A stretch of 64,000 nt of DNA from Lingula anatina (lineage: Eukaryota > Animalia > Brachiopoda): the NCBI GenBank assembly GCA_051362555.1, contig JBPQGU010000016.1, positions 2,046,001 to 2,110,000 on the forward strand, read 5' to 3'. Each line of letters starts with the position of its first letter. Within the stretch, counting starts at the first letter, position 1. Position numbers and translations under genes: made by a program. The notes under the pieces are model-generated. The model was not told the DNA's origin and did not search any database. It was given only the letters and a program-made list of their open reading frames with translations. This document shows positions 1,469 to 64,000 of the stretch, in pieces.

Positions 1469-2016
1469 TATTATATTTTGTAAATTTTCTGAATTTATGA
1501 AAGCAAAGTATACCGACATTTAAATACAAGAAAACAGGTGAAAAATAATTTTCAGAGTCAGTCAAAATTGTTACGTTTTCATTAAAAATTTGGAAAAAAA
1601 GAATTATCACAGAAATTAAAGCATTCTATGAAAGAGGACATTGACGTGAAATAGTTTGGCTATGTTACCGCGAAATGTGAGCAGTTGACACATCCAGTAA
1701 AAGGACATATTTTAAATAACATTGATAAATTCTTACATAAATAACGTACTCTAACTTAAAAGAAAATGCTCCTAATTCTTTTTTAAATCTGGTGCTCTGA
1801 ATTAATGTTTACCACAAAATATCAATGACAGCAAACAAGATCTAGACATAACGTGTATGTAACCTTTTGTAACAAATCTGCCTCCAAAGATTAAATAAAT
1901 ATGCACACTAAAAACTATTCACTTATATAATCTATATTATGACGAGGCTTCTTGTCCGACTTCATAACATGAAAATATATAATAAAAAGTGAATTCATTT
2001 CCAAGGTAGCTAGTGT

Positions 2017-3870: not shown

Positions 3871-4329
3871 TTAGCTAACTATGAATTAATCTACCCCTGA
3901 CAGTTTGAAGAAGGCTATGACATTATGAAACATTTATTATTACATAATGGCTCTGCGAACTACAGTCACTTCTTTTCACCTGTAGATCTGACCTGTTTGT
4001 TATACACCTGGCTGCTAGAATAAATACTAAATCTAACAACTGAAGTGAAATTATATTTTGAATGGGCCCCTGTCGGTCCATGTCGCTAACACAGAGCACA
4101 CATATTCATAAACACCGCATTTGCAAGAACCGCTTTGTGAAATAAAAAAAGAAAAAAAAAGACGCCCCGACAATTACGCGGCCTGATATATAGGCCTACA
4201 GTTCGGATATGCACACGGCAAAAACGATTAAGGGACCGTTCCCAGATCCTATCGTACTAACTATGGATCGATCTCTCCCAGAAGGAATGCTATATAAATT
4301 GCAATCAACGTAATCAGTGTGATCTGGCC

Positions 4330-6114
4330 AATTTTACAAAGTTGCTGTTTTTCCCTTTTCTCAGCATAATATTATATGCGATGCAACATTTTAAAGAGAA
4401 CCGATAGGTCTATTTTCATGAAACTCACAGAACTGATGAATATTAGTTAAACGCAGGTCAAGTTTGAAAATTTTCATAATGAGCTGCTTTTTTTTTCAGA
4501 AAATTTGCTGTTGTTTTTGCTTTTTTCAGCATACATGCAACACTGTAAACACAGTTCAAGGAGAAGCAATCGGTCTATTGTCATGAAACTCACAGAACTG
4601 ATGATTATTAGTAAAAGGGTTGTCAAGATCAAAAATCGGCATATCCGGGCCATTTTTTGTCAAAAGTTATGCTGTTTTTTTTCTGCCATTTTCAGCATAT
4701 AAGTAACACTGTAAGCACATTTCAGGGAGAACCGATAGGCCTGTTGTCATTAAACTCACAGGAGTGATCAATGTTACCAATATACAAATCAAGTTTGAAA
4801 ATAGGATTGATTGGTTGAGTTTTGTGGAAGTTGTGCCTTGTTTTGATATATATAAGTGGTTTTCCTCAGATTTGATTGTCAGGCATGTTGACAGTTTCGT
4901 TATTGAACTAACTAGATATGTAAATATGTTAGTGTTTGTCTGAAATTTTCTGCATCTTTACAACATTGCTAGTTGATTATATAAAAATGACGGTAAACAT
5001 GTTATCATGTACTGTGTAATACAGTGTCTCTAAATGGAGGAAATGGGGTGATTATTTTCAAAAGTTTTGCATTTTTTTTCTCCTTTTTTCAGTGTACATG
5101 CAACACTGTAAACACACTTCAAGGAGAACCAATAGGCCTGTTTTCATGAAACTCAGAGAACTGATGATTATTAGTAAATTAAAAAGAATGATCAAGATTG
5201 AAAATCAGCATGACCAGGCCCTTTTCTTTCAAATGTTATGCTGTTTTTTTTTTCAGCATATATGTAACACTGTAAGCACATTTCAAGGAGAACCAATAAG
5301 CCTGTTTTCATGAAACTCACAGAACTGATGATTATTAGTAAAAGAATGGTCAAGATTGAAAATCAGCATGACCAGGCCCTTTTCTTTCAAGTGTTATGCT
5401 GTTTTTTTTTAAGCATATAAGTAACACTGTAAACACATTTCAAGGAGAACCAATAGGCCTCTTTTCATAAAACTCACAGGAGTAATCAATGTTATCTATA
5501 TACAAATCAAGTTTAAAAATAAGATTGATTGGTTGAGTTTTGAGGGACTTCAGCTTTTATTTGTATATAAGTGGTTTTCCTCAGATTTGATTGTCAGGCA
5601 TGTTGACAGTTTCGTTATTGAACTAACTAGATATGTAAATATGTTAGTGTTTGTCTGAAATTTTCTGCATCTTTACAACATTGCTAGTTGATTATATAAA
5701 TATGACGGTAAACATGTTATCATGTACTGTGTAATACAGTGTCTCAAAATGGAGGAAATGGGGTGATTATTTTCAAAAGTTTTGCATTTTTTTTCTCCTT
5801 TTTTCAGTGTACATGCAACACTGTAAACACACTTCAAGGAGAACCAATAGGCCTGTTTTCATGAAACTCAGAGAACTGATGATTATTAGTAAATTAAAAA
5901 GAATGATCAAGATTGAAAATCAGCATGACCAGGCCCTTTTCTTTGAAATGTTATGCTGGTTTTTTTTCAGCATATATGTAACACTGTAAGCACATTTCAA
6001 GGAGAACCAATAAGCCTGTTTTCATGAAACTCACAGAACTGATGATTATTAGTAAAAGAATGGTCAAGATTGAAAATCAGCAAGACCAGGCCCTTTTCTT
6101 TCAAATGTTATGCT

Positions 6115-6155
<41 letters not shown>

Positions 6156-6600
6156 TTTTTCTTGTTTTTTTTTTTCAGCATATATGTAACACTGTAAGCA
6201 CATTTCAGGGAGAACCAATAACTTAAAGCCTGTTTTCATGAAACTCACAGAACTGATGATTATTAGTAGAAGCATATTAGTAACACTGTAAGCACATTTC
6301 AGGGAGAACCGATAGGCCTGTTGTCATTAAACTCACAAGAGTGATCAATGTTATCTATATACAAATCAAATTTAAAAATAAGATTGATTGGTTGAGTTTT
6401 GAGGGACTTCAGCTTTTATTTGTATATAAGTGGTTTTCCTCAGATTTGATTGTCAGGCATGTAAACAGTCTCATTATTGAATTTACTAGATATGTAAAAT
6501 GGGTTGTTTGACAATTTCTGCGTCTTGACAATATTGCTAGTTGATTATATAAAAATGGTGGTAAACCTGTTATCTTGTATTGTGTAAAAAAAAGTGCCAA
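4330..6600. repeat. Tandem array of ~160-bp monomers organised into a ~715-bp higher-order repeat
   Basis: The motif ttca(a/g)ggagaacc recurs at about 4556, 4721, 5118, 5282, 5439, 5833, 5996, 6203 and 6298. Near-identical ORFs start at 5092 and 5807 (715 bp apart). Confidence 0.9.
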
Positions 6601-9600
6601 AATGGAAATGAACTCGTATCATTGTAGTTTGTCAGATTCAATCATTCACAATGTTCGGAATGGAGGAAATTGGACATTTAAACTTGTTATAGTGATATTT
6701 TTGCCATCTCAACAATTTTCTTAGTTGATCATGTGAAATGGCAGTAAACTGTATTATTTTATGTAAAAAAGTTAAAAATGGAAAGAAACCCATTTCAGTA
6801 CAGTGCTCTCTTGTATACATTTAGCATTTTCAAAGTAAGACTTTGGAGTTCCATGAACCGGAAAACCTTTGCTAGTCACATTTTCTGAATATTCATGATA
6901 CTAATATTTTATTATAAAAAATTGATGATCATTATGCTGTTAAGCATTATATAATATTGCATCAAATTGGAAGAAAGCACAATTTGGGGTGCTGCTGGCA
7001 TGATGTCCTCAATTGTAAAATTGTGTACTGTGCAAGTCTGTATCCAATGGACGACATTTTGTGTTATCAAAATATAAAATTCATGATAATAAAAGAGTGC
7101 TAAATAGAAAATAAGCATTATGAAAATAAAATGTTTGAAAACGAATTTCTTTGGTCTTTTATTTTATTTCATCAGTATCCTTTCTTTTCCTAAATTAATT
7201 GATGTTTTATCTCATAATCTTCAATTCTAAAAAAGTGGCAAAGCCCAGCATTAAATATTGTATAACTGTTCATTTAATCATCACATCTGGTGTTATTTTG
7301 GAATTTACCTTAAATATGAAAGAATTTCATAAAAATGTGAATTGCTGCAAAGTAACGCTATATAAAATTTGCTTTGCATTAAAAGTACAATCATTATTAC
7401 ATGTAGATGCATGCAAGTCCTCGGTTGTAATGTGTAGTGTCTGTCCGTGTGTGTGTCCGTGTGTGTCCTCGGTTAGAATGTAAAATTCTTGTCAGCGAAA
7501 AATTAGTTTTTATAAAAAATTAATTTATAACATTCATACTCGAATAGATTTTACCCTAAATTGAATGTTTTTATTTTGATTTAACCAAGGAATAAGATGT
7601 CCTCGGTTGTATGGTGTTGTGCTGATGTCCTCGGTTGGTACACATAGACAAGTATGTGTGTGAGTGTTCGCGGGCGATTGTGCGTATGTGTGTGTGCTTG
7701 CATAAAACGTATAAAACGTATCCGGAACCGCGCAAATCTGGTAAAGAATAAAACTTCCAAACAGGCTTAAAATGTTTACACCGTTTAAAAATTTGGGTGT
7801 ACATCATTCAACGTATGATATATGTGGTTATACATGATATAGATTTCGTGTCTTTGCAGTTTGATATACAAAAACAAATATTTCTTTCTTTGATATACAT
7901 TTAGAATACAACAGGTTGTGGTAGGATTGTTTGGCAATACATGTCAACATACCAGTGTTCCTCGTTACAGTATAAGTAGGGAGGGGTGATATTTCACTTT
8001 TTTTGAAAAGGCAAGGTCTACCCCCCCCCCCCCCCCCCCCCCACTGAATTTATGTAATGGGACATAAAAAGTGTAAAAAAATATTTTACCCCCATTACCC
8101 TCACTATTCTATCCCCCCTGTACATACCCCCTGAAGTTAATGATCTTCACCGATCTGGCGGTTTTGGACGCTTGGTAAAATGTGTCATATTGAGAGTAAT
8201 TAAAATGCTCACAAAGGATAATATATTATGTTTGCAGTATGAAGCATATGTTTCCAATACGTACATCCCACAGAATTCCTCTTATTTGTTCTTGGAAGTT
8301 GAAAGATATGAAAAACTCACATTTGAGCGACTTTTACAATATTCCATGCATATCCTTACATGCATTTACTTGCAACTGCCTATGTATTCACCAATGAAAC
8401 CCAGTATCTTGTATGGCCGTAGTTAACTATTTCCATTTTATTATTAAAAAACTTTATTAAAAACATTTCATTTAGAACTTCAGGATGACTACCTGTTTCA
8501 GGAGAAACTAGAACAATTTTATGTTTTTTTTTGTTTTTGTTTTTGTTTTTTTTTTTTTTTGTTTCATGCATCTGTCCAGCTGTTTACGTGTGAACTGATA
8601 TACAACATTGGTCAAAAAGGTTGTCTCACCCCCATTTCCATGAAATTTTGCTTACAAATGATCACCTCACAGCTGTAAATTGTTAGTTGTTGTTTCTTTA
8701 AGTTGTCTGAATGAACTCCTCTGTAGGTCTAGGGTTTTAGAAGTAGATACATACATGATACATTTTTTTGTGATTATCAACACTTGCCTTTTGTTGTAAA
8801 TAATAGGAAATGGGAAAAAATATATTTGGTAAAACCCTAGAGGAATACGTATTTTAAAGGCAAAATGGGTCAGAAAGTCTATTCTAATGAGCATTATTTA
8901 GATCAATAAAAACCACCATGTTTGGATAACATACAAATTGTGTGTACTAAATGTAGAAATAAGCTTTATGCATATACCCCAGTGCCTGTATTGAATATGG
9001 TTGGTTGAATCGCCTAATTTGTATTAACAATTATTTGCTTTGGCAAAAATTGATGCTTAACAGATGGGAAAACTGTTTTTTTTTTTTTTTTTTTTCCACA
9101 GCAACCATGCTGGCTGGTTAAAATCACAATTTTCAAAATTGCTGACAAAACGCCCTAACGAATGTTTATGATATAATTAAGTTACATATTTAGCAGTTTT
9201 CTTTGTCATATTGGGGTAATGTATTAAAGACATTGTACTCATGATGTTGCTGAGATCATAAATATTCTTTGTCAAGTTTATATTGAACTCCTTCAACTTC
9301 ATATATCATCATATATGATCAGCCACATTTAATTCTTGCACTTCACAGACTTGTACTGCTTTATTTGTTCCCTGGATATATAAATGTCTAACATCATTCT
9401 GTTGGGCATCTCTTTTCAAAAATAGAAAAAATATTCTGAATAAATTTTGACAAAACATCATTTCACACTCACTTGCATGTACTCCAAGGCAACAAAAACA
9501 AGCAAGGGGTTGGCAGATGTCTTAAAATTGCTATTTTACCAAGTATCTGCAGCCCTGTGCAATATTTTGAACAGTTGTGTGCAATTATTAAACGTAAATG

Positions 9601-15126: not shown

Positions 15127-15660
15127 TTCTTTTATGGCGCCTTACATTCTATCTCAAGGCGCCTTACAATAATGGCTAATATACTAAAATCATTAAAATG
15201 ACTACAATATTTTAATCATAAACTCTCATTGGAAACCATTTAAAATTTACACTACTAAAAATCAATCTTATTAAAAAAATAAAACATATATATATTAAAA
15301 TAAAATCTAAGAAATATAGACAGAATTAAAAATGTGGGTCTTTAAAAGAGATTTAAAATTGTCAAAGTCTTCTGTTTTCCTAATAAAATTTGGTAGACCA
15401 TTCCACACTTTTGGGGCGTAGATTATAAAAGCACGATCTCCATAACTTTTTAGGCACCCCTTCTCTAAAACAGAATGTTCTAAAATAAAATCATTCTCAG
15501 TATTAAAACGTGTGGACCGCCGTGGTAAGTTAAAACAGATAAGATCAGATAAATATAATGGTCCTTGTGAATGGATCGCCTTAAAAATAATACAGAGTAC
15601 TTTAAAATCAATCCTCTGCTTCACAGGCAGCCAGTGTAATTCTTTCAGAATGGGAATAGT
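15087..15660 (-). mobile_element. L2 LINE 3' fragment with (TTA)n tail
   Basis: IPILKELHWLPVKQRIDFKVL...YGDRAFIIYAPKVWNGLP...FKSLLKTHIF, followed by a 3' aggcgcctt...aaggcgcc stem-loop and a microsatellite tail. Confidence 0.85.
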
Positions 15661-16839
15661 ATCTTAATCTTTTGAGCTCCACGATTGTTGTCTAATTTTC
15701 ATTAAAAAAAAGTTTCACTGTTAGGCACCTCGAGAGACTGTGGTACAAAGAGACTTTTCAGTTATTATGAAGACATTGAAGATTTGCATTCATTGCAACT
15801 TGTATTCCTGAAGGCCCACCTCCAAAACATTATCAGTTTATTTTGTTCAAAGCGGATAAAAAAAACTTACCCATGGCTTTGGTCTTTTCAATGCAACCAC
15901 AGGATAGCGTTGGTACATTTTCTGCTCAATCGCAAGATAGTGAGCCTGGTCCCCAATTATTGGCAATATGTCGTACCAAAAGGAGGTCACTTCTGTGATC
16001 ATAAAGACCACATCCTTGCAGGGGTCCCATTGACACCGAGGTGGACTTGACCAAATCACTGAATGGAGAAAGTGGTGACATAACACTTTCTTCAGAGATT
16101 TTATCTGAAGCTAATTAAATTAACGAATAAAAAAGTAACTGCATGAAACATTAGTACTGTAGTGGAAAATGACAGAAATAAAATGACTGATATATGTCCA
16201 AAGAGATGCATGGACTTTTAATGAAATGTACAGAATTTACCACCACAGATCAATTGAGTCATCATTACATACAGGAAAACAATGCTTTTGACATTTTAAA
16301 TAGAAACCAAAATTTTATTCGTCATTATTTTTAAAAATAATTTCCAGCCAAAATGTAGTATGGCATTCTTGTGTGGAAAAAAGCAGACTTTCGAGAACTG
16401 AAGGAAGTTTTACTGTATTATGTAAGCATATATACCTTTGTCCACATTCAGCAAAATAGTCTCATCAGTCTTGAAAGGCTCATGGGATGTAGGGCCAGGC
16501 TGAAGGACTACAACAAGTCATATCCTGCTCCAGGGCTAAGCTTATGCCTTGAGAATTGATGAAGCATTTCGTGATGTTTCCTCCTTACATGCACTTAATA
16601 AGATTGCAAATTATTTTGTGGTGTAGGCCCATGCACCAATACAACAAGCCACTGCAAAGTTTTAGTCATGTTGATGGTTTCGAATAAAATGTTTGCTAAA
16701 AGGTTGATAACTGTGATTGGCAATTGCACTTAGACCACTGTGGAAGTGAAGAACCAAAAACTCAGACGTGGTGTAACTCGCATAGCCGCACGTCTCGCAT
16801 GAATGCGTTATAACCCGTTCATGGACCGTGGTCTAAATA

Positions 16840-24575: not shown

Positions 24576-26236
24576 CAGGGTAACCACTTAGTATGGAATA
24601 TTATTTTTTGGCGAATAAATTTTCTACAAAATATTTAATTTCTCTCTAACTACTTTAAATCCAAAGCTGAGGTGTCACTCCATGTGTAGCCAGGTGTGTT
24701 ACCTAATAACCACACAACTCTCAAAACAATTGATGCATGCAGTTGCATGTTCTGTGGTCAGAAATGTGAGGGGTGGTCTTTTCGGCAATGTCTGCCCTTG
24801 TATAAAAACGCATGGGTTTGGTCAATCTTTGGAGCGTGTTTAGAGAAGCAACAAAGGGATCGCTCTGAAACTTGGCAGGTACCTTAGTGAAGATAGGGTT
24901 CGACAGCAAAGCAACGCAGCTTACTATGGGATTCTTGCTCTCAGAGAAAATGACCAGAAACGGACAGCCATTGCCAGGTAATTCAACATTTATCAGGAAC
25001 CGTTTGTGAAGTCCTCCAAAGAAATTCTGCAACAGGGGCAGCTACTCCAATACCTCGACCATGGTGTCCGCGTATCACATCAAGAAGACAGGATCGCCTT
25101 CTCCTTAGAGAATGCCGTGCTGGTCGTACAAAGACAACCAGTGTCCTCAGAAAAGAGAGGCAGAATGTCATTCAAACGCCCGTTTCAAGGTCCCACGTGA
25201 ACAAGAGATTTCTGCAAGCCGGTTATTTTGCACGAAGGCCAGTAGGGAAACCACTGGTAAAAGCAGGTCATATACAGCGACTTCTGCAAAAGGCTGTGGA
25301 CCACGTGCCTTTGCAGCCAAAACACTGGAATCACGTTGTTTTCAGTGATAAGGCCAGATAAGGATTTTTTAGGGTTGATCGTCGAATCCGTGTCCACCGA
25401 CGTGTACGAGGGGCATAAAACAATGATTGTGTACTGTCTAGGGTGCAAACAGGGGATGGTAACGTCTCTGTTTGGGGAGCATTTCATGTCGGTGCCCAGA
25501 ACCAGTTGTTTTTTCTAGGAGGCAACCTCATCCAGGATTCCTACAGATACATTCAAACAATGCTTCGATTGGTAAGATTCATCTTCAAGAACAACTTTGT
25601 GTACCAAGTCGACTGCGCAACCCCACATCGAGGCCGCAGAATCATTGTTTTTCTTCAAAACCAATGGGTTCAGCAACTGCCCTGGCCTGCAAACTCCCCG
25701 GTAATCAACCCAATTGAAAATCTGTGGGCGGAAGTAACTCAGAATTAATAGCTATGGTCCTCGGCCGGTAAATAGTGATAAACTGCGACAGGCAAATATC
25801 ACTGCGTGGAATGATATCCCCACCCAAACTCTAAAAAACGTGTCACAGGGTATGCCATGTAGGATGTGGGCTCTGCAAGCGGCTGCTGGAGGTCATACCC
25901 ACAATTACTGACTTTTCATGATTTACTGTAGTGAGTTCTTTGACTGTGTAACATATCACTGTCCAGAGGCTATCATTTTCTTTAATATCTTATCTAAAAT
26001 TTTATACTGACATCAAACTGTTGATATGGTTGATATGGTTTTCTGGGGGTGTTCCTTTCTTTTGAATGGCATCTTATGTCAGATTTAATATTATTGACCA
26101 AAATATCTCACAACAGAAGACTGGATGTTATTATCACTCAGTGACATACATTTTTAATGACTCAAGCCAAAAAATATTTAATCAGCACACAAAAATAACA
26201 GTGATAAAAAATGTTCCATATTAAGTAGCAACCCTG
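24576..26236 (+). mobile_element. Second Tc1 transposon (degenerate transposase) inserted in the Gypsy integrase
   Basis: ta|cagggtaaccacttagtatggaa ... ttccatattaagtagcaaccctg|ta; motifs VSVWGAF, YQVDCATPH and WPANSPVINPIENLW. Removing it restores ERVHIDILG. Confidence 0.88.
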
Positions 26237-26359: not shown

Positions 26360-26777
26360 GAGCTACACATGAATTGACATACAGTGTGCAGTCGGTAGTC
26401 ATTCCATACTAATTTTTTATTTTTTAGGTCATGCCAAAAGAGGGTTAAAAGAGCCTTTATCAAACCTGTTGTAATATAAAACACCATCTTTCATGGACAG
26501 CAAATTGAAGTTTGTCCATACAAATTTCACAGCTGTCGAGCATAGATGCAACCCCTCTTGAGAAGGACTTACATTTTCCTCAATCCAACCTATCACCTTT
26601 AATAAGTGAGGATCTTTTAATTGCGCTTCTCTGAGTTGACTTACTGTATACTTGGCAAACAATTCAACATTCCCAGTATTTTCCTTGTGTGGGTTTACGA
26701 CAGATGTAACAGTTTTCACGCTTCTTAGAGACAGGTGCCCTGTGTAATCGACATCTTTGTTAAATCTGTCCCACTCT

Positions 26778-28394
26778 TCATGAAGCCTGGTACAGTGGTG
26801 GCAGCCTCCACAAGGTAATTGTCACACCACAACCAGCTTCATAGTAATAACAGTCCTTGTGCTGAAGAGGAATGCCTGACAACGAATCAGCATTACTGTG
26901 TTTTTTACTCGATCTGTGCTGAATTTCTAAATCACACTGGGCCAATTCCTCCATCCACCTTGCTAAAACACCATTTAGCAATTTAAAACGCATGATCCAG
27001 TACTGTACTGCCGTACTGCCGAGTAAATCGGACTACTGCTAAAAGCTCCTTTTTAGTCGTGCAATAACGTTGACTAGGAGTGAGAGCAAAACTACCATAA
27101 CTAATGACCTTTTCAGCGTCATTTTGCATCTGTATGAGCTCAGCGCCAATACAAGTATCACTGGCGTCCGTGTCTAAAATAATTAAACAATCACTGTCTG
27201 GAAAACATAGCACGGGACTATGGACCAAAGCCTGTTTCAAGTCATTGAATGCAACTTCGTGTTCATGAGTCCAATTAAAAACACGTTTGTTTTTGGTCAA
27301 ATCATTAAGTATATCAGCAAAACATTTTATGTGACTTCTATGGTAATTAACTAGACCAAGGAATCTTTCCACGTCTTTCTTACATTTCGGACGTGGCCAA
27401 CGTTGAACTGCTTTCACACTGTCAGGGTTCGGAGCTATGCCACTCTCATCTACCAATTTACCCAAATAGAGAACACTCCTTTTGAGTAATGAACACTTGG
27501 ATGGTTTTAATTTCAATCGATTTTCTTTGAATCTATCCAACACCAGTGCAATATTGGCTATAGAATCATCAAAACTGTTCCCAAGCACAACAGCATCGTC
27601 CAAGTAAGCGATCACTTGTCTCCACGTCAAACCACGCAGAACGGAATTGACTGCTCGCATGAAAGTAGAAGGGATGTTAGTCAAACCAAACGGTAGTCGT
27701 TTAAACTCAAACAAACCGTACTTGGTCATAAAAGCGGTTTTAGGCCGGGAGCTTTCCTCAACTCCAACCTGATAATAAGCACAGATGATATCAAGAGTGC
27801 TGAAATACTGAGTGCCCGCTAAAACATCTAAGGATTCGTCTATCTGTGTAGTGGATACACATCCTTGACGGCCACTTTATTCAAAGCATGAAAATCTATG
27901 CAAAATCTCAAAGTGCCGTATTTCTTTCTCACTAAAACAGGAAGGGATGGCCATTCAAAACGAGAGGGTTGCACAATATCAGCGGCTAACATTTTATCTA
28001 ATGTAGCCTTTTCCTCTTGTTCAAAACCCAGAGGTGTACGTCTCAGTCTTTGTTTAATAGGCTTTGCTTCGTTGATATCAGTTATATGTTTAATCTTGGT
28101 AAAATGACTGATATCAAATTCAGATTTCAAAAAAACATTGGTATATTTTATCAAACGATTGCCTAATTTGAGAGACTGCTCAGTGAACAGATTCTCACTA
28201 GATCGTTTCCACAAATCAATCACGTGTTCAGGAATATTATTATCCACATCGTTAGAGTTCACATCAAGAGTGTTCACATCGATTTTTCCGAAACATTTCA
28301 TAAGGGTATCTACAACACTGTACAGGTGCATCCTTTCGTTAGGTGATAGTTTTACAAACTCGTCAAGGGCTTTACCTTCTAGTGAATTGATCAT
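26778..28394 (-). pseudogene. Gypsy gag remnant plus pol RT/RNase H, frameshifted
   Basis: PIKQRLRR, LRFCIDF, LPFGLTN, YLDD, LDTDAS, YCTTKKELLAVV and HSNADSLS. No protease motif is visible; gag joins directly to the pre-RT linker. Confidence 0.88.
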
Positions 28395-29141
28395 AATTTC
28401 GTAGATTTCTTTGACTCCCCATCCCTTGCTCTCGGCAATGCAACATAATTTTAAGTAATATGAATGAAGTTAGTGCTTCCATCATAGGATTGGAAAAGGG
28501 TGGACGGCTGGGGGCAGAAAATGTGTGACTCATTATAAATGGGGGATGACCTACCTGTTGGAGGTGGTTGCCGGTTTTTCGTCACTATACAGGGGAGTGT
28601 CCACTGGCCTTGACCTTTGCGTGGGGGTGAATCTGGGTACATCCTCAGAGAATTGTCGATGTGGCCCGCTCGGATCAGAATTCTGACACCCATAACGGTA
28701 CGCTGTCACGTTTGGGTCAGTGACAACTGGCTGCCCAGGTCTGGTACAAAATCAGGACTTGAACTTATTCGCTCAGTTAAACCATAAGATGAAGACTCCG
28801 TTGAAGTATCAGAGACAGGATGAGCATCGGCATCATGAGGATAATTTATCTCAATGTGTCCTTGCTGAGCATGAGTCAAGGGTGAAGCTAAATCTTCCAA
28901 ATAGGGATGGATTGTCACGTCTCATATATGAGATAAATTCTGTTTGAAATTTCTGCAATCCTTCTGTCATTTTATTAACATTTTCACACAGTCCTTCAAA
29001 TGTTGAGTTCAAGTGTCCAATTTCGTTTTCCATTCGTGTAATCCGTGTTTCCTCACAACTACTGTCAATTTCTTTTGAGCATAAAGGCTCCACCTTGTTG
29101 AAAATCGTAAAATAATAATTATTCAACGTGATAAAATGTGA

Positions 29142-37227: not shown

Positions 37228-37255
37228 TATTTATTAATTTTAATTATATATATAG

Positions 37256-37336
<81 letters not shown>

Positions 37337-37355
37337 CGGAATAGGGGAACATTAC

Positions 37356-37944
37356 CGTTTCAGCATCGGGAACTTTATACGGCACCGTTTCAACAGATTT
37401 TATCAGCTCTATCAACTCTTCTTGTTTCGTATCTCGGTCTTCCCGGTCACTGTTTTCTACACACCATATTCGTTCGCCACATTCGTAATAAAGATTCAGA
37501 AATGGTTCTGGCGAATCGGTGATATATTCTCCGATGGAAGTGTATTCATGTTTTATGACATCAGCAAATGTAAACACAATGATACTTTTCTTAGGGAAAT
37601 TGTCTCCGAAAATCCCCCGTAACTGGTTTACTGCTTCTATTTGAGTATTTTTAATTCGGCCCATTTTAAACACAATCAATATAGAGTCCACTTGCTTCAG
37701 AGATCCAGCTTCCTTGTATATTCTGCGCAATATCTTATTGTCACTTTTGGACAGCGAGCCTAAACCAGGTGTGTCCATAAGATGGACAGTGCAAGAGCAA
37801 GGTTCGTTGAGCCTGAATTTCGTGTGTGCAATTTTGCCATCTTTTCCATTATACTCACGGTCATCGGATAGTTTCTGTACAGTTGCAGATTTCCCTTGCC
37901 CCTTATAGCCAACGACTATTACGTTGTAGGTTTTAGTGGTCGCC
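37356..37944 (-). CDS. GIMAP/AIG1-family GTPase, main coding exon
   Basis: Extending ORF 37227..37778 upstream gives YNVIVVGYKGQGKSAT (G1), HLMDTPG (G3), VDSILIVFKMGR (conserved box with Arg), SIIVFTFAD (G4) and ECGERIWCVEN. Acceptor tttttcag| at 37945 and donor acg|gtaatg at 37355. The IYIY tail in the ORF track is an intronic (TA)n repeat. Confidence 0.9.
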
Positions 37945-38035
37945 CTGAAAAATGATTACACCATGAATTATGAAAAACTGAACTATAAAAAAGCAGTAAA
38001 GAAAGTCAGAAAAATAAAATGAAAACCTTACTTAC

Positions 38036-38232: not shown

Positions 38233-41200
38233 GCAATATATATAATCAAGAATTCTAAAACACACCACATTAATGATATTTAGACTAATGGTAAGGTATA
38301 AAGTATAGATGCAGTAATGACTATAGCCTTTTCTTGATAAATCGGCTTTAACGCTTTATTAATTTAACAGTTAAACTGAAACTATATTTATCCGTTTCTT
38401 TAGCCTCAAACAGAGTCTCCGTGCAACTTACTGTTTAATACCTACGTTTCATAAATGATTCACCATTACACGTGAATATTTACTTACATTGCTGTTCCTA
38501 TTCGGAGAGAACGGATGATCTAGCGAATGGCTATAAAAATCAAACTGCGCATGCACTGATAATTCGCGGGACCTTCACAAAGGCGCATAATTTGACAATT
38601 GCAAGGGGAAATTGTAAACATGCATTATTTCATTATTTTGTTAATTACTTGCTGCTGGCACCTTCTTTTGATCTTCTTCTCTTTATATTGTATAGTTGCT
38701 ATGTCCAAGTTGTTACTCGTACATGTATATGTATAAAACACGATGACTTCATTCAAGTTCAAACTGACATGAAACAAGGGGCAAACAGAGCGCTTCTTTT
38801 TCCCTTTTGCTTTAGGCAGCAAAATATTATAGTTGCAATGAGACGCTCCATGAGCTTTTGACCTCATAACAGCGTCACTGAGCTCCTGACCTCATATATA
38901 CGCCCACATAAGCGTGCACAGCACAGCCTCAAATGCTGCCAGGAAGGAAGTCTGCGTTACGTGTACCGAACACATACTGAGCTCATTAACTATGTTCTGA
39001 TAGTTCAAACAAGGTAAAGATTTAATATGCTCAAGTGAAATAGTTACATTACACTCATCAGGGTTAATTTGTTATCAACAGATTTTGGAAGAAAGGGTAG
39101 GTGAGCTTGAATCCGAGCCACCCACACTGGATCAAATGCCACGCTGACTTGCAAATCGGAGATGGATACAGCGTTAATAACGTAAAAAAAACACATAATT
39201 GAAGGCACAGAAGAAAATAATTTGGATTTTTCTAGACATCACCTCGCCATTTAGCCGGACACTTAACCGGTCGCGATTCTCAGTCCAGCGGCAGCGAGGG
39301 TTTTTTGAGGCTCAAGGCAAATTTTAATATACCTGGCAAATACGTAAGAAACAAGGCGGAGGCAAGAGCAAATGCTAGTTGAAAAGGAAATAGGGTGAAC
39401 ACAACAGAAGGTGACGTCACTACACTGCGCCCGTCTATTCGTCTGCAAACCGTGAGTTTTTATTTTCCTTTTATTTAATTAATTGGATGATATGTTTGTC
39501 TACTCGCCCCTTTATTTATTTTTATTAATTGACTGGTTAACTGATATAATTTTTATGCCAGAAAATACCAGCTCTGAAAAGGATAACCATCAAGGCTTTG
39601 TTAGCTGCATGCGTGCCTTCAACTTATGCTCGATGTACCCTGTCTGCTCCCATACCCTCTCCCAAAGTTATAACCTAGCTGACAGAATAAACTAAATATC
39701 CATCTTTATGACCTTGTGATACAGTTACATTTTGTTTATGTACTTTCTTAATATGTGTTACCATTGTGCCAACCAAAACCCAACACCTAGTACATCCAGT
39801 GTTTAAATTTTGTCCAATTGTATTGATGACTAAGTTGTCAGTGCTTTACAAAAGAACCAATGATTTTTGACAAAATATAATTTCGTAAACATTATTTTTT
39901 TTTTATGTAAGTTGCCTACTTCACTTCAATTTTTCTCGCCAGCTCAAAGATTTCTCTGATATTTGAGCGGATTTAAAAGAAATGTAGTGTTTTATGTCCC
40001 CGTGAATTACACAGCGCCTGCACGGGGGAACCGATATGGCAAGAGGAGGGCGAGCCAAAGACGTCCATTCGTGTCCCTTTCGACCGACAAGCATCGCGTT
40101 TAAGTGTTCAACGTTACTTGAAAATTAATTAAAACGCAAATTAATCTAGACTTCAGATTTAGTAAGACAAAGAAATATATTATTAGAACTTAATTAAATC
40201 CCATTTAAGATGTGCGTAAAATCTGAGTAATTGCAGTTGGTATTTTCAACTTATACTATAAAAGCCGCTAAATGCCATTTATTGTATTTTATTGTCAAGT
40301 TATTGTTTAAATATATATATTTTAGATATATTATGTAAGACGCTATGAGAGTCCAATGGAGTGTACATGTACCTGAAGAAGAGGGGGAGGAAAAGAGAGG
40401 GAAAATTAAAATAAATAGCAAGTTACAGCTAGCGAGAAGATGGCAGGGAGGAAAATTTGAAAAAAATTCAAATCCATTAACTCCCTCCATAAGCACACAC
40501 ACTGAACTTTTATTCGTGTACATAATCTCTTAAGAATGGTTAAATCGCATTATTCATCTCTGATCATTTATATGCCATTAGCTGAAACGAATATAAATTT
40601 CTGGCCCAGGCTTTTCCCAGTGAATCATAGCTCACAATGCATGCAGGTACTGGACACCTGACAAAATTTGTTGAGAAAACACAGAGGAAAACGCCGCAAT
40701 TTTTATTTTCAATTCTGTTACATGAATTTTTTTTTTTTTTTTTTTGAAGTATTAATAAAAAAGAAAATATAGTAATTGGACAGTGCATATTACTAGAATC
40801 GTTAATGCAGAAACGTGAAAGTGATACAAAGCAGATAAATACTGAAATTTATTGAAAGATCCATAGATTAAAGGCACTTCCATCTCATAAGGATTACAGA
40901 AAGCCAGTCTTCTTGTTTATCAAAGACACTGTTTATCAAAGACATTACTTACTATACTATATATAGTATTAATTATTCTCTGGACCTACTAGTAAGTAAT
41001 AAGCCAGTTGTAAAAAATAAAGAAGTATTGGCTTTTCTTTTTTGGAAAACACTAAATAATTACCTTCTGCATGCATTGTAAAACTGGTAAATATTCAAGA
41101 CATTTAGTCCATTTTTGCTATAGTTTCAACAGGGCTAGGTATGTTGCAAACATTTACAAAAACTGAAACAGCACCATTGAGCATTGGTCGGTAACGTCCC

Positions 41201-44120: not shown

Positions 44121-44249
44121 TTTAGGGTTCTAGGACTTTCCGTACTAAAATAGAGTGTCTAGGGGAACTCTACATTACAGAACATAGAGTCCGGGACCCG
44201 TTATTTCGAGACAGGGTGTCCGCCGGACTCTCAGATTTGAAAACACCGC

Positions 44250-44690
44250 CGGACCCTAGAATGGTAGGACTCTGTGTTGCTTGACACCGGAGTTAGAGAT
44301 ATGGGTCTAATGTCTGTCTCTATGGTCTTTGGAGGAATACACTTAGGTTGTGGTGACACATATGCATGTTTCCAGCGTGGTGGGACATATCTTTCACGAA
44401 CTGAAGAGTTGAATATATCACATACAGGGGCAGCTAGGTACCCTGCTAGGTCATGTAGGATCCAGTTGGGAATTTCGTCGGGACCTGTGGACTGTGTACA
44501 TTTACTTGGAGCAAGGTCTTTCGACATCTTGTTTTGTGATGATATATGTGGCTGGTACAGGATCTGCTGCTTCCACATGTTTCGGTTCAAGGGGCACAAA
44601 GTAATTTTGACAGATTGTAATAAAGCGTTTATTTTCTGGGCTAATAAGCTGAAATCAACATATTGCACTCACTGACGTTTCAAATTTAAG
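44250..44690 (-). mobile_element. LINE RT N-terminal fragment (L2/CR1 group)
   Basis: STGPDEIPNWILH...IFNSS...VPPRWKHAYVSP.PK...DIRPISLTP. Confidence 0.8.
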
Positions 44691-46109: not shown

Positions 46110-48240
46110 TATTTTTAGGCTTTCATCGTATGCTGGTTATTTTGGTAACAATAGTCCGAATATTTAACAATTCGCACCGCTCTAATTGCTGACTAACCCC
46201 CAAGCCCAATAGGAGTTAACCGCTAAATGTAGTTCAAACAGCGTAGGTAGTGTTTTGGTTATTTATAAGAAGGGTTTTCTAAACATTATATCATGTTTTT
46301 CCAGAATGTTATAAAACGCTGATAAAACTCCACAAAATAACGTTATCATAAAGTTTTGTAGATACTGTCTTCGAATCTTTCTACAAAACGTTCTGATGTT
46401 ACTATAATGTTTTTTGTTAGCTGTGACAACACTTTGCATAGAGTGAAAAGCCAAGTGCTTAGCCAAGTTGCTTAGCCTTGTGATAGACTTATAACAGAAT
46501 CATATACCGGGGAAGCTAAGCACATAGCTAAACGTTTAACACTGTCAAACGTGTCTAGCATTTTCTTTTGTGAGCAGCTTGAAAAGCTATACGTGTTTAG
46601 CTTTAACACATATTTCTAAATGCGTTTAGGTGCTAAACGTGCGTTTTATGTGTTTAAATACTAAACACTGTTTATACAGTGTAAGTGAGTCGGTCATATA
46701 TTTAGTTTGCGGATCTGTTTGTCCGCGGATCAACTTGTTCTGAATGCGCTCAAAGTCTCTTTTTCAGCGGAATTTTTTTTTATATTGGTTAAATTGATGT
46801 AGTCTGTTAAATTAGGTGTACAAATAATTGAATAAAGAATGACCGAAAAGAAAAAAGGCCAGGAATAAAAATGATAAACAAGGCAGCATGAAAGAAAGAG
46901 TTAATACGGGTAGATATTACTACTACTACTACTACTAAGAATAATAATAACAATGATAATAATGAAAACGATAATAATTATATAAGTAATAATAATCAGA
47001 AGAAGAATTCGTGTAGTATATTTCTATAATTATTATTTATTTTATTATTCAAAATTATATAATAAAAAGATTCTAAAACATACCAATTAAAATGAAAAGT
47101 GAACGATGGTGATTTATTCAGAGAATTGCCAAGACAGACAATGCGGTAATGAACATAGCCAGTATTAGTTATAGAATGCCATAATCTTGATAACCATTGT
47201 CTGAAATCGAGCGCAGTTAACATTAACGTTTTCCTTGAACGGCTGAATCGAAACTACTTATCCTTTTCTTTCGCCTAACACTGACTCCACGCACGTAAGT
47301 ATTTGTAATTACATAGCTATTCCCGTTTGTGAGAGTACCGATGCTCTATCGAAGCCTTCCAACTGGTGATCTGTGCTTTGAAGGGTTGGGGGGGGGCAAA
47401 TGAATGTACAAGCAAGTAACGAACTGGGCATGCTACAGGGGCCTTCAATAGACACATCATTTGACGATTGCAAAAGGAAATCATTATCAGTAACGTTCAG
47501 AACGGCTTGTGCATCTAGCTTTGAAAAGCTTAATTAAACTATTTGATTTAATTAAATTATTAAAATAGAAGACATAAAAAACGATAGTTTAATTTCAGTT
47601 ATTTTATTTCTTATATTTTATTATTTTATTATTTTTCCGCTTTCATTCCCTTCTTTAGACCTTCTAGTCGTTACAGTTGTATTGTCTAAACTGGTTTTAC
47701 TGTATTATATAAACAGATGACAGCATATAGTTTTAAGATAATTTCACATATATTTCATAATCTGTTCACTTTATTGATGGTATATGACTTACGTTTATAC
47801 AGCGTTAGAGAATAGAATCAAGGGGTCCGCTGTCACTTTGCTACATCTCTCATAAGTACAACCTTTCTTCTTTAATTTTGTTTTAGCCAACAAAAAGGCA
47901 TTGTTGCTATGAGACGCTCCCTTAATCCTTGACCTTCCCTGCGTTACGTATAGGAATTTGCTTATCAACAGCACGAAGTAGCACGAGTGCATATACTTGC
48001 ACAGCGTACAACCAGTTCTGCTGTCAGGGTGGAGGTCTTCGTCACCAAATACATATTAAGCTCATAAACTGCACTCTTATAGCCTAAACAAGGTAAACGA
48101 TTTAATTTCTGCAATAAGATCTGTAACTAAGCTCATCAGGGTGTTATCAAAATACATTGGAAGGAAGGACAGAGTAGCATTTTAATCTGTCTGTTTACTA
48201 CAACTCTATCCCCTGGAGATTTTTATTGAAGACAGTATAT

Positions 48241-49469: not shown

Positions 49470-50083
49470 AATAATTTGCCTCAATTTCACATTGTTTATT
49501 ATCAGTATGAAATCCATTCTATGTGTACTCTGCCTTTAACTGTATATATTTTTGAATGAAGGCAGACAAAGTGTATCAATGTCACATCGCTTATTCTCAG
49601 TATGGTTTTCATTTCAGATGTCAAGGCAGGAGGATAACAAGGTAAATACTTTCGTCCTCCATAGCATCTCATTCTTTCTCTTACACACACACACACTCAA
49701 GCACATCGGTAAAGTCAGGTAAATATTATTCCCCTGAGCACAATACCACCTGACTACCCCCAAGGAAAAAAAAACTCTACCTCAGGTAAGAAAACATACT
49801 GTATTCGAAATATCTATTTGTGAATTTTATAAATTACTTGGAAATTTTGCGAAATATCAGATAGAGGGCAGTTGAGATATAAGAAATGGTTATTTTAATA
49901 TAAATTATAACTATAAATATTATAAGATATAATTAAGATTATAAAAATCAGAAAAATCAAATATCAATTTGCAAATTTGACATTGCAGGACGCTTTTGAT
50001 CAAGCAAATACTAAGTTCTAATTGGGATGTGGTCTTGGCCACTTAGGAAGTGGACTAGATTAGTACTGGGCCTGTGACATATA

Positions 50084-58402: not shown

Positions 58403-61400
58403 GTGTGTGTCCACGAGAAAACCAGACCAAATGTAGAAAATGCGGCAAGGCGGGGGTGAACGGATTTACACCATATTTGGTGTGTTTGAACTTTTATATG
58501 AACAATATCTGAGGCTGCAATATTTCCTGAAAAAAATCCCTACCTACAGAGATATGGGCAGTCACAATTTGGGGGGTTAATCAACCAAAAATTCATTTGA
58601 AAAACAGGGTTATATTGATTGGCCTTACAGTTTATACAGGTGTCACTTAATGATTTAGTTTGGTGATATGTTATAACCTAAAGATAGGGGATTAAAATGA
58701 TATACACTTTTTTCACCCTCTTTGTTTCCATGGTAACAAACTAAACGTTTTTCTCAGGGCTACGAACCACATGCTTTGAACACCCCCCTTCTATTTTTGA
58801 CAATATCTTCATCTTCACAGGTCTTTGGGGTAAAGCGTGTTCAGGACTAACAGATAACTCATTAATCTATTTATACATGAAATCAAAACTTACTGCTGTT
58901 CTACAACTTGTCCGTTGTAAGAGATAGAACATGACCTAATTTCTTCATTTTTCGTAAATATATCTGGACACATATATCGGTGCACTCAACTTCAGCTATC
59001 TCTTTCAAGTCAACAAATGGTTTAAAACACTGTCAGTTGAGCTTTATATCTTCATTTTACCTATTCTAATTTTTTTCTGGTTAAAACAAGCATCTAACAC
59101 ATTTTAAAATCATGTGAAACTAATGTACTAACGACAGAACAACACAGCGTGATTATCCAACATGGCGGAAAGCGCAGACTGTTTCTTTGCAAATCTTCCT
59201 CACCGAAGTCGTATATCATGTGGTTTATACTGTGTCTACAGATATGAAAAAACATGTAGTGTATTGAAAAACTGCAACAGAGACATTAACAGTCGTCTTT
59301 GTCGCGTTTACGTGAAGCAAAACAGCGTGAGTTACGAAAGCAAACTGATTCTTGTCAGGTGTGGACTCTTTTGTCTCCGATGACCGCATTTTCAAGTATC
59401 TTTGGGAGAATGAATGGGTTACACCATGTGACCAGCATAGGGATATGGGCTTGGTTTGTGCTGGAAACCATCCACACCGGGAAAAACGAGCCTATAACGA
59501 AATATGTCATGGGATTAACTTGCAGATGTCAGTGTAGACAAAAAGCCATTTGAATATACTGGTGCCACTTGGTTCAGGTAAAATACGGGTTTGTTTGTAT
59601 TTTAATACAGGCTAAAAGCCAGAAAAAAGGTCACTCAGAAAAATGATCTAGGTGCAATTTTTTAATGGTAAACGGTCCATTTTTTTCTTTTTTCTTTTTT
59701 TTTTTTTTTAAAGAAAAATGCCCCCTTTCAAATAATGAAATTTCATGCAGCCTAAGGACCTGTGATAATCCTATCTTTTAAGATTTGTGTAGGTATTTAG
59801 GTTGGTTTAAGGGTATTTGGGTAAAATAAATTTAAGGGTAACAATTGGAATTAGATTGAAGCTAGGGCTGGTCTTGGCAAAATTGCTAGTCTCATCATAA
59901 TTTATATTCGAAACCATGTCTTACTTATAAAACATTGACACATGGGATAATAATTTATTTTTCATCAACGTATCAATTAACTTTGAGATAAGTGTTTTCA
60001 TGTGTCTATAGTAAGCTATATTTATATTTCAGGCACATTTGAGAGGTGTTATTTGACACACAGTGATCTTATGGTCAGCAAAAGAGTCCAAAGCCTTGCA
60101 GAAACTGAAACTAGTGTGGAAATGATGGATGTTGTAGAAAGGCATGTATGTAAATGAAAGCCACAATATAACAAATGCTGAGGAGATGCATGAGTCCTTA
60201 GTTTCTGCAGATGGAGTGGAGGGGTGCTCTTTTGCTGCCATTTTCTACATCCAGCTAGACAGACATTTTCCAAACCTGCGTGGACCGGAGTGTCCAATTA
60301 CAACAATTTGGCTTTCTTGATTCCTACAACATGAGAAAAGGTGTCTCTCTTCCTTGAGCAGTTTTAATATGAGTGATACTGATGTTAAAGTTAATTTGGG
60401 TTTTTCTGTGGCAAATGTACCAACTGGGACTATACCTAGAGAACTCCACCCTCTTGAATATCTCACTGAGTTACACAATGGATGAGCTTTAAAGTCATAT
60501 AAACCTTTGAAACTATATTCAAATAAAGTAAAGGAGTTTTTACTGAAGGAGTTTAGAAGGGCACAAGAAACAGGCCAGCAGAACCTAGCATTTGTGAGCA
60601 TGAAGATGAGATTGAAATGTCAGTAAGGAGGGTTACAGACTATTCAGGAAGAAAAAATCGGCAGTTATTTTTGAATGTATTATAAACTTTGATGTTATGA
60701 GCTGTAATGTTTGATATAAAACTGTTAAGATGTTTCATAACACCAGGATATATTTTGCAGTTGTGTTAGTTTTGCTTTTTGAATAGAAAATTATCTTGTT
60801 TTGCTAGACCTTACATAATGATATAGGTTGTAATGATCACAACTAATGTTGCACTGCTTTGCATGTATTGCTGTATTATAATTTTGTGATTTTTTATTAT
60901 TTGTAATTATTCATCTGAGACAAAAATAAACTAATTTAAATATTTTTTAGTTACTGTTTGCTCATAAAGAGTCACCAAAGAGTGGTGTGGATGATTAAAA
61001 AAAACTTTTGAAAATTAAAAAAAGATTTGTTCTGGCTTCGATCTCATAAATACTATAAGGCATATCCGGATCTCTAAATGATAAATATTGCACCAAAAAG
61101 AAATCTTCACTAAACTAAGATTTTAATTTGTATTCACCAAATTGATGATATATATATAATCATGTAAATTATCAAGTTAATTGCCAGTGCTTATCCAAAG
61201 TAATAGAATCTAAGATTTATTTCCTCTTAACTTTTTGTCCATACAAATGAAAAAGTCCATATATGACAATTTACAAAAATGAAACCCAATGACCTTGACC
61301 TATGACCCACTGACCTGATATTCATTAGAACACATCCACTTTCCATGCTCACCAGCCCTATTAATTTAGTAACAACATTGTAGAGCAAAATGTTTTAATA

Positions 61401-62085: not shown

Positions 62086-62787
62086 GTGAGTCCCTTTAAT
62101 TAATGTATGATATTACTCTTTACCCTTTTTATTTGACACTGTCTGTTTCTCTCCCCTTTTCCTTTCTCTTGTAAGAAGGAGGGCAAATAATTAAGCATTC
62201 AAAATATGCATCACCAATCTTCAGAAAAGAATGAGTGAATGAACCATTGGGCTGGCCCACAACGTCCGACACAGAAGAATAAATTAAATAACAGCTTTCA
62301 CAGATTTAAAACTGCAGTTAGCTGTATAGCGTCACTATATACATACTATATACAACAGCTGTTGAACAAACGGATAGTTCTCTATGGAAGACCTTTTGTT
62401 TACATAAGTACTCTAAGGGGGCTAACCAGGCGACAAGAGGATTAGGCTAGTCACTATATTCCGTCAAATTCGTTTAGCGACCCTATCATTATCACACTCC
62501 CTCTATTGTATTTTCTGACGTTATAATTGTATCTAATCTTCTTACGTTAGATGGAATAAATGCACACGTAATACATAATCTTATGACTGTACTTGTTTGT
62601 AGCTTTAAATTCTTGCTAGGACATTATCTGCATTTTCATATTGAAAAAAAAATATTATTTTAATCATCAGTAAGATTATGTCGGTTATGTCCTGACATTA
62701 GTGAGGACAGTAGTTCCAGACACTGTGTTTTTCCTTGGGTATTAACGAATTGTGAGAGATAAGTAATATTATGGGTATCTACTACAG

Positions 62788-64000
62788 GGCAAAGATGTTT
62801 ACGAAGAAATACCGCCAGCTTATGCAAAGGGGGAGCACACCAACATATTTGTCGTTGGGCAAACAGGAACTGGAAAGAGCTCTACGTGTAATATGATGGT
62901 GGACAAAGAAGGAGCTTTCAAAACAGGATTTTGCCTTAAAGGTGTTACGGACGACGTGTCATCTCACTGTGCCAACTTGGGTGGACGCAAGCTTCGCCTG
63001 ATTGATACTCCCGGTCTTTTAGAAGCAGTTTCGTATAGCCAGTTTGGATTTCTGAAGAAGATCATGACGAAAAACATTAGTTTGCTCGGCGGCGAGGAAG
63101 GTATCGACGCGTTCTTGTTTGTCATTAACTGCAACGATACGCCATCTCAAAATGAATTGAGCGTCTTAGTTAAGTTAATTTCGATGTTTTCGGAAGACAT
63201 TTTTGAATATATGGTTGTTGTGGCTACTCACAAGGACGAACTTGAGATGAGCGAAAGGACAACAGAAAGTTTCAAAAGCAGTCTTCCCGGCAAAATGAAG
63301 ACGATCCTTCAGAAGGCTGGTGGAAGGATAGTGTTTATCAACAGTGTCACCAAAGACGGGAGAGAGCGTAGACACTACGTTAATTCTATCATCCGCCGTG
63401 TTGATGAGATTGCAAGAGCTCATCTAGGTAAGAAATTTTCCAATGAAGCCATCGAAAAAGCACGCAAGAAAAGACAAGAACTAGAAAAAAAATACCCTTA
63501 CCTGAGTGAGACCGGTATACAAGAAGAATTAGAAAAGGTGATCGAGCCATATTTAACATCACAATACTGGTGTTTTGATGGCTCTTCCACTGTGCGTCTT
63601 AGCGATGGGTCAATCACACCAATGGCCAAACTAACATCCGGTGACAGGGTGCTTTGTGTTAGGGATGATGGCTCCGTTGGCTTCGAGGACATCTTCTGCT
63701 TCAGCCATGCAGATGAAAATTGTCAAACTATATATGTCCACCTGCAGACCGCAACCGGGAAACACCTTCTCCTCTCTCACGGTCATTATATCCACGCTCT
63801 CTCAAATTCTACATCATTCCCATTTTCCATTAAAGCTGCCCGTGATATCCGCGTTGGAGATGTGGTGTTCACTTATCACCCTGCCGCCAACGCCATATTT
63901 ATGGATGAAATTGCGGCAACAGGCAGTAAGAAGGTCACCGGTGCCTTTTGTCCTCACACCATGAGCGGCACCATCATCGTCAATGATATTTTGGCGTCCT
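62788..64000 (+). CDS. GIMAP/AIG1-family GTPase fused to a Hedgehog-type Hint domain (partial: 5' exon uncertain, 3' end beyond the window)
   Basis: Frame 1 is open from 62767 to the window end; likely acceptor ctacag|ggc at 62787/62788. Manual translation: NIFVVGQTGTGKSSTCN (G1), KGVT (G2), RLIDTPG (G3), GIDAFLFVI (conserved box), VVVATHKD (G4), GGRIVFINS, FSNEAIEKARKKRQELE (charged helix). Then YW-CFDGSSTVRLSDGSITPMAKLTSGDRVLCV...GKHLLLSHGHYI...AARDIRVGDVV...GAFCPHTMSGTIIVNDILAS, matching the Hint N- and C-terminal blocks of Hedgehog. Confidence 0.93.

Follow-up and report, generated by a model that had tools for sequence, protein, structure and literature searches.

The question raised by this locus is whether a GTPase of the AIG1/GIMAP family and a Hedgehog-type Hint domain, found in one reading frame at the very end of the window (the whole 64,000-nucleotide stretch of Lingula anatina DNA that was analysed), belong to a single gene and, if so, what its product would do. 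Our preferred reading, to which we give roughly even chances, is that of a GIMAP-Hog gene of the GmGIN1 type which contains introns, which would yield a cytosolic, self-cleaving product with possible transfer to a lipid, and which would have lost a MACPF exon. The fusion itself consists of the following features:

62788..64000, + strand: main coding exon, encoding an AIG1/GIMAP GTPase, two linker helices and a Hint domain (Pfam, structural model and contigs); open at the window end
62842..63489, + strand: AIG1 G-domain, residues 19-234 (Pfam, motifs)
63571..63999, + strand: Hedgehog-type Hint domain, with Cys262 (Cys1), His307 at the position of Hedgehog Asp46, Ser330-x-x-His333 (block B) and the Ala-Ser of motif J

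Both domains lie in the same frame of one open exon. This frame is free of stops from 62767 to 63999, where it runs off the window, and the translation of 62788-63999 comprises 404 residues (P0001). An AG acceptor is present at 62786-62787 and is used in contigs of three sequencing runs (X1, X2 and X5); as the first in-frame Met after this acceptor is located past the P-loop, the start codon must lie further upstream. The earlier note had described a single uninterrupted frame of about 404 codons, and was right about the frame and its domains, but it missed that 62788-64000 is a downstream exon with its start in upstream exons.

A Pfam search identifies AIG1 (PF04548) at residues 19-234 (E 1.6e-38, model positions 2-210 of 212, 132.6 bits against a cut-off of 27) and Hint at residues 259-404 (E 1e-26, model positions 10-158 of 213), the two families that had been expected from a profile search. 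The GTPase motifs are G1 (GQTGTGKS at 62857), G2 (Thr54), G3 (DTPG at 63004), G4 (ATHKD at 63223) and a G5-like FIN at 63334. The codon of the Hint Cys1, TGT, occupies 63571-63573, exactly where the earlier note had placed it, and the charged helix seen between the domains turns out to be two charged helices (residues 220-235 and 241-256). The maximum hydropathy of any 19-residue window is 1.34, and by this measure the 404 residues contain neither a transmembrane helix nor a signal-like stretch, which agrees with the cytosolic setting proposed earlier. The window terminates with Ala-Ser followed by a T. Contig ends beyond 63998 from X1, X2 and X5 give Cys-Tyr-Thr, the loose ends of the near-identical contigs reading Cys-Tyr-Thr-Asp-Ala-Val, and the related proteins P0005 and P0163 continue as ASCYT at the same position; the conserved Cys anticipated after ILAS is thus supported.

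The best solved relatives of the product are human GIMAP7, 1, 4 and 2, along with Drosophila and human Hedgehog. An AlphaFold2 model of the 404 residues (15-row alignment, mean pLDDT 84.3) matches GIMAP7 (E 2.3e-15) as well as GIMAP2, and its Hint domain matches that of Hedgehog in 6tyy (target TM 0.93, rmsd 1.4) and in 1at0 (TM 0.93). Motifs G1 to G4 and, in the model, a GIMAP fold with C-terminal helices point to membership in the AIG1/GIMAP family. Similarly, the features of a Hog domain are present (the Hint fold, Cys262, Ser330-x-x-His333 of block B and the Ser-Cys-Tyr of motif J), as are those of a GmGIN1-type protein (AIG1 and Hog in one chain, with no transmembrane helix by hydropathy). 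The Hedgehog general base Asp46 (Drosophila D303) is not present, its place being taken by His307, aligned to the engineered His in 6tyy, a D46H structure. This substitution lowers the identity to Hedgehog and not the working likeness, since the engineered D46H swap is active according to the accessible text of PMC9163320.

Upstream of the main exon, two further exons can be proposed:

49618..49641, + strand: 24-nt micro-exon with an ATG first, encoding MSRQEDNK, the likely start codon (AG..GT borders, contig loose ends)
47887..48092, + strand: candidate 5' untranslated exon (8 letters of one X1 contig, homology to 38816-39096)

Contigs of X1 and X5 (study P1) and of X2 (study P2) have nearly identical loose ends at 62786, which match the window at one place only, 49615-49638 (none of 100 shuffles gave a match). 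The micro-exon, encoding a charged octapeptide, is in phase with the 62788 exon across an intron of 13,146 nt, and its ATG is likely to be the start codon. The three runs carry the label 'DNA?' by guess, yet their contigs are joined at both canonical borders, as a spliced mRNA would give, so that this is a gene with evidence of splicing; the joined contigs may also derive from a processed copy elsewhere. Between 62604 and 62737, X6 has cover and X1, X2 and X5 have none, but as this gap by itself proves nothing the splicing claim rests on the loose ends. One X1 contig continues with eight letters that match 48085-48092, which is followed by GT in the window, a kind of match also given by 10 of 200 shuffles; they suggest that 47887-48092 is a 5' untranslated exon. 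A stop in frame lies 11 codons ahead of its donor, which would leave the ATG of the micro-exon as the start. Another possible donor, at 39013, differs from the same eight letters at one position and was ranked below 48092.

The AIG1-Hint junction (63571) is bridged by contigs of all three runs (X1 record 7 with 0 differences, X2 record 12 with 2 and X5 record 23 with 5), in none of which a joint is listed. Transcripts that always splice out before 63571, and a stop or frameshift in the reads, were outcomes the earlier note had asked about; contigs run through the junction, and the 13 listed in-frame differences, in which alleles and paralogs are mixed, comprise 10 missense, 3 silent and 0 stop changes. 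The remaining contigs differ at about 10% of positions, and therefore close paralogs or divergent alleles exist. An assembly chimera is ruled out by the bridging contigs and by relatives with the same fusion. Raw RNA runs X8, X11, X14 and X15 (4 of 9 runs, 6-26% of each read) gave a mean depth over the exon of 0-0.25x, at which the lack of any joint into the 62788 exon in these runs is uninformative. All four contain a GT..AG joint at 59572-60028 (+), within the 13-kb intron, which probably represents a transcribed repeat from other copies, as the reads differ at many sites. Locus words are nearly lacking in runs X17-X19; this is no proof of absence, and presence/absence variation is accordingly not claimed.

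To place the gene among its relatives, proteins were collected in a HMMER scan (5330 at E up to 0.001) and the best 150 were examined with local profiles. AIG1 is present in every one of these 150, and Hint in 31 of them. When 24 proteins with matches reaching Hint were submitted to Pfam, both domains were found in every one, and CARD in 5. The CARD + AIG1 + Hint proteins are P0025 (from a sea cucumber), P0042 (which also has a DED), P0070, P0091 and P0116. Named AIG1+Hint members (10 looked up) come from Lingula, Potamilus, Apostichopus, Bradybaena, Tegillarca and Haliotis. The closest among the matches listed are two Lingula anatina proteins, LOC106179620 (P0163, 71% identity) and LOC106154465 (P0005, 65%), over 403 residues; the Hint domains of these and of the window protein form one clade with full support (100/100). 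Identity to P0163 is higher in Hint (123/143 or 86%) than in AIG1 (136/217 or 63%), and the window protein sits on a short Hint branch (0.018). The top Atlas cluster is AIG1+Hint, with Mucoromycota as its commonest taxon (score 0.92). A word-indexed search at near length, in which the best-sharing candidates were scored, returned only 3 fish GIMAPs among 7994 candidates, and one at longer lengths, scored in the same way, returned no model of this locus.

The combination of AIG1 and Hint has been in print since 2002, so the novelty considered in the earlier note does not hold: it is known from fungi, corals, snails and lancelets. In the fungus-derived GmGIN1, the C-terminal domain reportedly self-processes in vitro. 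In its accessible text, PMC2362128 describes GmGIN1 of Glomus mosseae as lacking a signal peptide and as having a bona fide Hog domain behind an AIG1/IAN-like GTPase, all of which it has in common with the window protein; the window gene differs in being from an animal, in having introns and a micro-exon start, and in its MACPF-bearing closest relatives. The accessible parts of the remaining sources report an expansion of AIG1+Hint (MEROPS C46) in Glomeromycotina (PMC8778642, PMC6956056), AIG1-Hint in Acropora millepora (4 sequences, PMC3723955) and Biomphalaria glabrata (PMC7053062), and a lancelet CARD+AIG1+HINT (PMC12373286); PMC8857920 does not mention Hint. The coral, snail and lancelet proteins have the same two domains in the same order and appear in those parts as domain listings. 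The accessible text of the lancelet paper holds CARD and HINT architectures to be unique to amphioxus among animals (PMC12373286), but the sea cucumber protein P0025 has the same combination.

What sets the closest relatives of the window protein apart is their N-terminus. P0005 and P0163 have 370-390 extra residues there, made up of a MACPF_SNTX-like domain and a helical region, and this architecture recurs in other members of the family:

P0005 (residues 1-372), P0084 (residues 1-305), P0035, P0034, P0052, P0055: MACPF_SNTX-like + AIG1 + Hint
P0071, P0109, P0154, P0155, P0163: further proteins with MACPF_SNTX-like + AIG1 + Hint

Pfam makes no significant call on the N-terminal region of P0005 or P0163, and a sequence search of P0005 1-370 against the PDB gave nothing significant. 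The Atlas places P0005 1-372 with MACPF_SNTX clusters (features 0.96; structure TM 0.70-0.72 across some 350 residues), the corresponding part of P0084 matches stonustoxin alpha (E 7.7e-6) and beta (E 4.9e-4), and a family profile of the region matches Aeg-L, a fungal MACPF protein. Pfam MACPF matches for P0084 and P0035 fall below the curated cut-off. The AlphaFold model of P0005 is of low confidence over most of the N-terminus, with a Foldseek list that contains no MACPF; because this model is weak, the MACPF call is based on the Atlas clusters, stonustoxin, Aeg-L and the Pfam evidence. The N-terminal profile matches 9 of the 31 AIG1+Hint proteins (among the best 150 of 5330), a count that is partly circular, the profile having been built from the same proteins, and no protein among these 150 has the region without Hint. 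Named members with all three domains come from a brachiopod, an abalone and a land snail, and the MACPF label requires two changes on the Hint tree. No description of the MACPF+AIG1+Hint architecture was found in the literature covered, which leaves aside subscription journals and supplements; architecture tables in the supplements of PMC3723955, PMC7053062 and PMC12373286, outside that scope, might list MACPF fusions. The MACPF-bearing relatives and the invariant His base described below are testable leads that we did not find in print.

The window does contain the remains of such a domain:

38816..39451, + strand: start of a paralogous gene, with a 5' exon (38816-39013), a 68-nt intron and a broken exon (39082-39451) (tblastn, splice sites)

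By tblastn, the broken exon matches P0005 1-113 (48%, E 2.5e-23) and, at 39107-39451, P0163 1-123 (53%, E 4.8e-28). The MACPF exon at 39082-39451 has stops in all three frames (5-8 per frame), and as this broken first exon is all that was found, an intact MACPF_SNTX-like domain is absent from the window; residues 114-370 of P0005 have no tblastn or profile match between 39.5 and 62.8 kb. At 47.4-48.2 kb there is a second copy of the region 38.6-39.1 kb. The acceptor of the MACPF exon is still present in the copy at 38.6-39.1 kb; the one at 47.4-48.2 kb has no AG there and diverges after that point. The two copies of the candidate 5' exon share a 7-codon upstream ORF in equivalent positions (38838-38861 and 47909-47932, + strand), which may tune translation. 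Given the broken exon and the duplicated 5' region without an acceptor, this locus seems to have lost the MACPF domain, which is apparently missing from its spliced form while P0163 and P0005 (both uncharacterised) have it beside the same AIG1 and Hint. The simplest reading would be a tandem duplication of a MACPF-AIG1-Hog gene, after which one start decayed and the MACPF exon was skipped in the other.

As regards chemistry, the positions on which Hint autoprocessing depends are well conserved in the 33 aligned AIG1+Hint proteins: Cys1 is present in 31 (2 gaps), the Thr69 position of block B is Ser in 26 and Thr in 7, His72 is present in 33/33, and the motif-J Cys in 29 of 32. At the Hedgehog Asp46 position, all 33 have His. 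Compared with Hedgehog Hog, the window protein has the same Hint fold, Cys1, block B His and motif J Ser-Cys, but His in place of Asp46, Ser in place of Thr69, and Trp261 rather than Gly at position -1, a residue that varies across the family; its N-domain is a cytosolic GTPase and not a secreted ligand. A tail of 48-76 residues is kept in all 31 AIG1+Hint proteins (of the best 150 of 5330). The His-Pro-Arg of the sterol-recognition region (SRR) is complete in 22 of 32 aligned family members, and the SRR of the window copy lies beyond 64000. In P0005 and P0163 the SRR motifs are degraded: the His is replaced by Arg or Glu and the Arg by Trp, leaving only the Pro, and the HWY hinge is absent. 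The accessible texts of PMC9163320 and PMC8529194 report that Hedgehog with the engineered D303H (D46H) change retains its structure and activity and accepts more sterols (coprostanol, epicoprostanol), and that of PMC7906309 that in human SHH the HPR residues are important for cholesterolysis. As all Hint catalytic positions are filled, self-cleavage between Trp261 and Cys262, which the earlier note had inferred, is to be judged probable. A lipid adduct on the GTPase is a more tentative proposition, with chances somewhat below even: it is favoured by the SRR-like tail in the family and by the His at the general-base site, and weakened by P0005 and P0163, which have lost the SRR His and Arg. 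If cleavage does take place, we would give a lipid or sterol adduct about even chances, and plain hydrolysis or thiolysis slightly lower ones. A sterol-like lipid is our best single guess for the nucleophile of the family, and a less sure one for the window's clade. Protein splicing, inferred for the coral proteins in the accessible text of PMC3723955, was rejected here: motif J is of the Hedgehog type (Ser-Cys, not His-Asn), which speaks against that proposal, and no extein-like domain follows Hint.

Under the preferred reading, a cytosolic protein of about 475 residues would be made, in which Cys262 would attack the preceding carbonyl, aided by Ser330 and His333, to form a thioester. An SRR-like helix pair encoded past the window end would dock on the membrane and His307 would activate the incoming hydroxyl, most likely that of a sterol, so that the freed GTPase of about 270 residues would bear an adduct where its last helix ends; this adduct would stand in for the transmembrane anchor found in vertebrate GIMAPs. 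The gene would have arisen by duplication of a MACPF-AIG1-Hog gene and, through loss of the MACPF exon acceptor, would now encode a GTPase without a pore-forming domain.

Cleavage could also be put to another use, with Hint acting as a self-removing membrane tether or inhibitor and with water, glutathione or a protein nucleophile resolving the thioester to give a soluble GTPase. A thioester in the cytosol would face millimolar thiols, and the lost HPR His and Arg and the missing HWY hinge of P0005 and P0163 point the same way. Set against this are the invariance of the general-base His and the retention of the SRR-like tail in all 31 AIG1+Hint proteins noted above; in Hedgehog, the position held by this His coordinates the two catalytic steps and serves to activate the sterol (accessible text of PMC9163320); we regard cleavage with no lipid as possible but rather unlikely. 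A more pessimistic interpretation would have the locus transcribed at a low level after the loss of its MACPF exon and drifting toward a pseudogene. The broken exon at 39082-39451, the near-zero depth in four raw RNA runs and the predominance of missense changes (10/13) would fit such decay, but the 404-codon frame is intact and keeps all its GTPase and Hint motifs next to a MACPF exon riddled with stops, the Hint branch is short, and the same splice occurs in three runs of two studies, which makes decay improbable in our judgement. Least probable of all, and hardly to be expected, is an mRNA that keeps the N-terminal effector through further exons and, like that of P0163, encodes a complete MACPF-AIG1-Hog protein. 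The domain is present in both closest relatives, and the X1 contig has a loose end of at least 255 letters, 30 of which were read; however, P0005 114-370 remains unmatched at 39.5-62.8 kb, and the upstream exon that does match has the in-frame stop before its donor.

If Hint does transfer the GTPase to a sterol, a cytosolic enzyme would be undergoing lipidation of the Hedgehog type, with a natural version of a base swap that the accessible sources describe as an engineered variant. To judge from the MACPF-GIMAP-Hog architecture of the relatives, brachiopods and molluscs may possess an intracellular pore-former that anchors itself. The short MACPF-less copy offers a compact construct to test the chemistry without the pore domain. 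A bolder generalization, which we consider unlikely though worth stating, is that an effector (stonustoxin-type MACPF or CARD), a GIMAP GTPase and Hog together define a widespread class of invertebrate intracellular immune proteins, in which Hedgehog chemistry with a natural His would, in the cytosol, link a pore-former gated by GTP, or a death-fold scaffold, covalently to membrane sterol; the window gene would then be a MACPF-less sister, and possibly a regulator or decoy of its pore-forming paralogs.

The remainder of the window includes a second AIG1 GTPase exon without Hint at 37230-37955 (-) (Pfam E 4.5e-26), which follows an AG acceptor, has a frame that enters a TA microsatellite and stands head to head with the start of the broken MACPF gene; the region thus holds a small cluster of GIMAP genes. 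Nested tandem repeats of several hundred bases occupy 4312-6606. The segments 2-1519 (-), 15310-15663 (-), 24954-25745 (+), 26432-28469 (-) and 44234-44668 (-) are what we take, by eye, to be LINE reverse transcriptase, Tc1-like transposase relic and Gypsy-like pol relic sequences.
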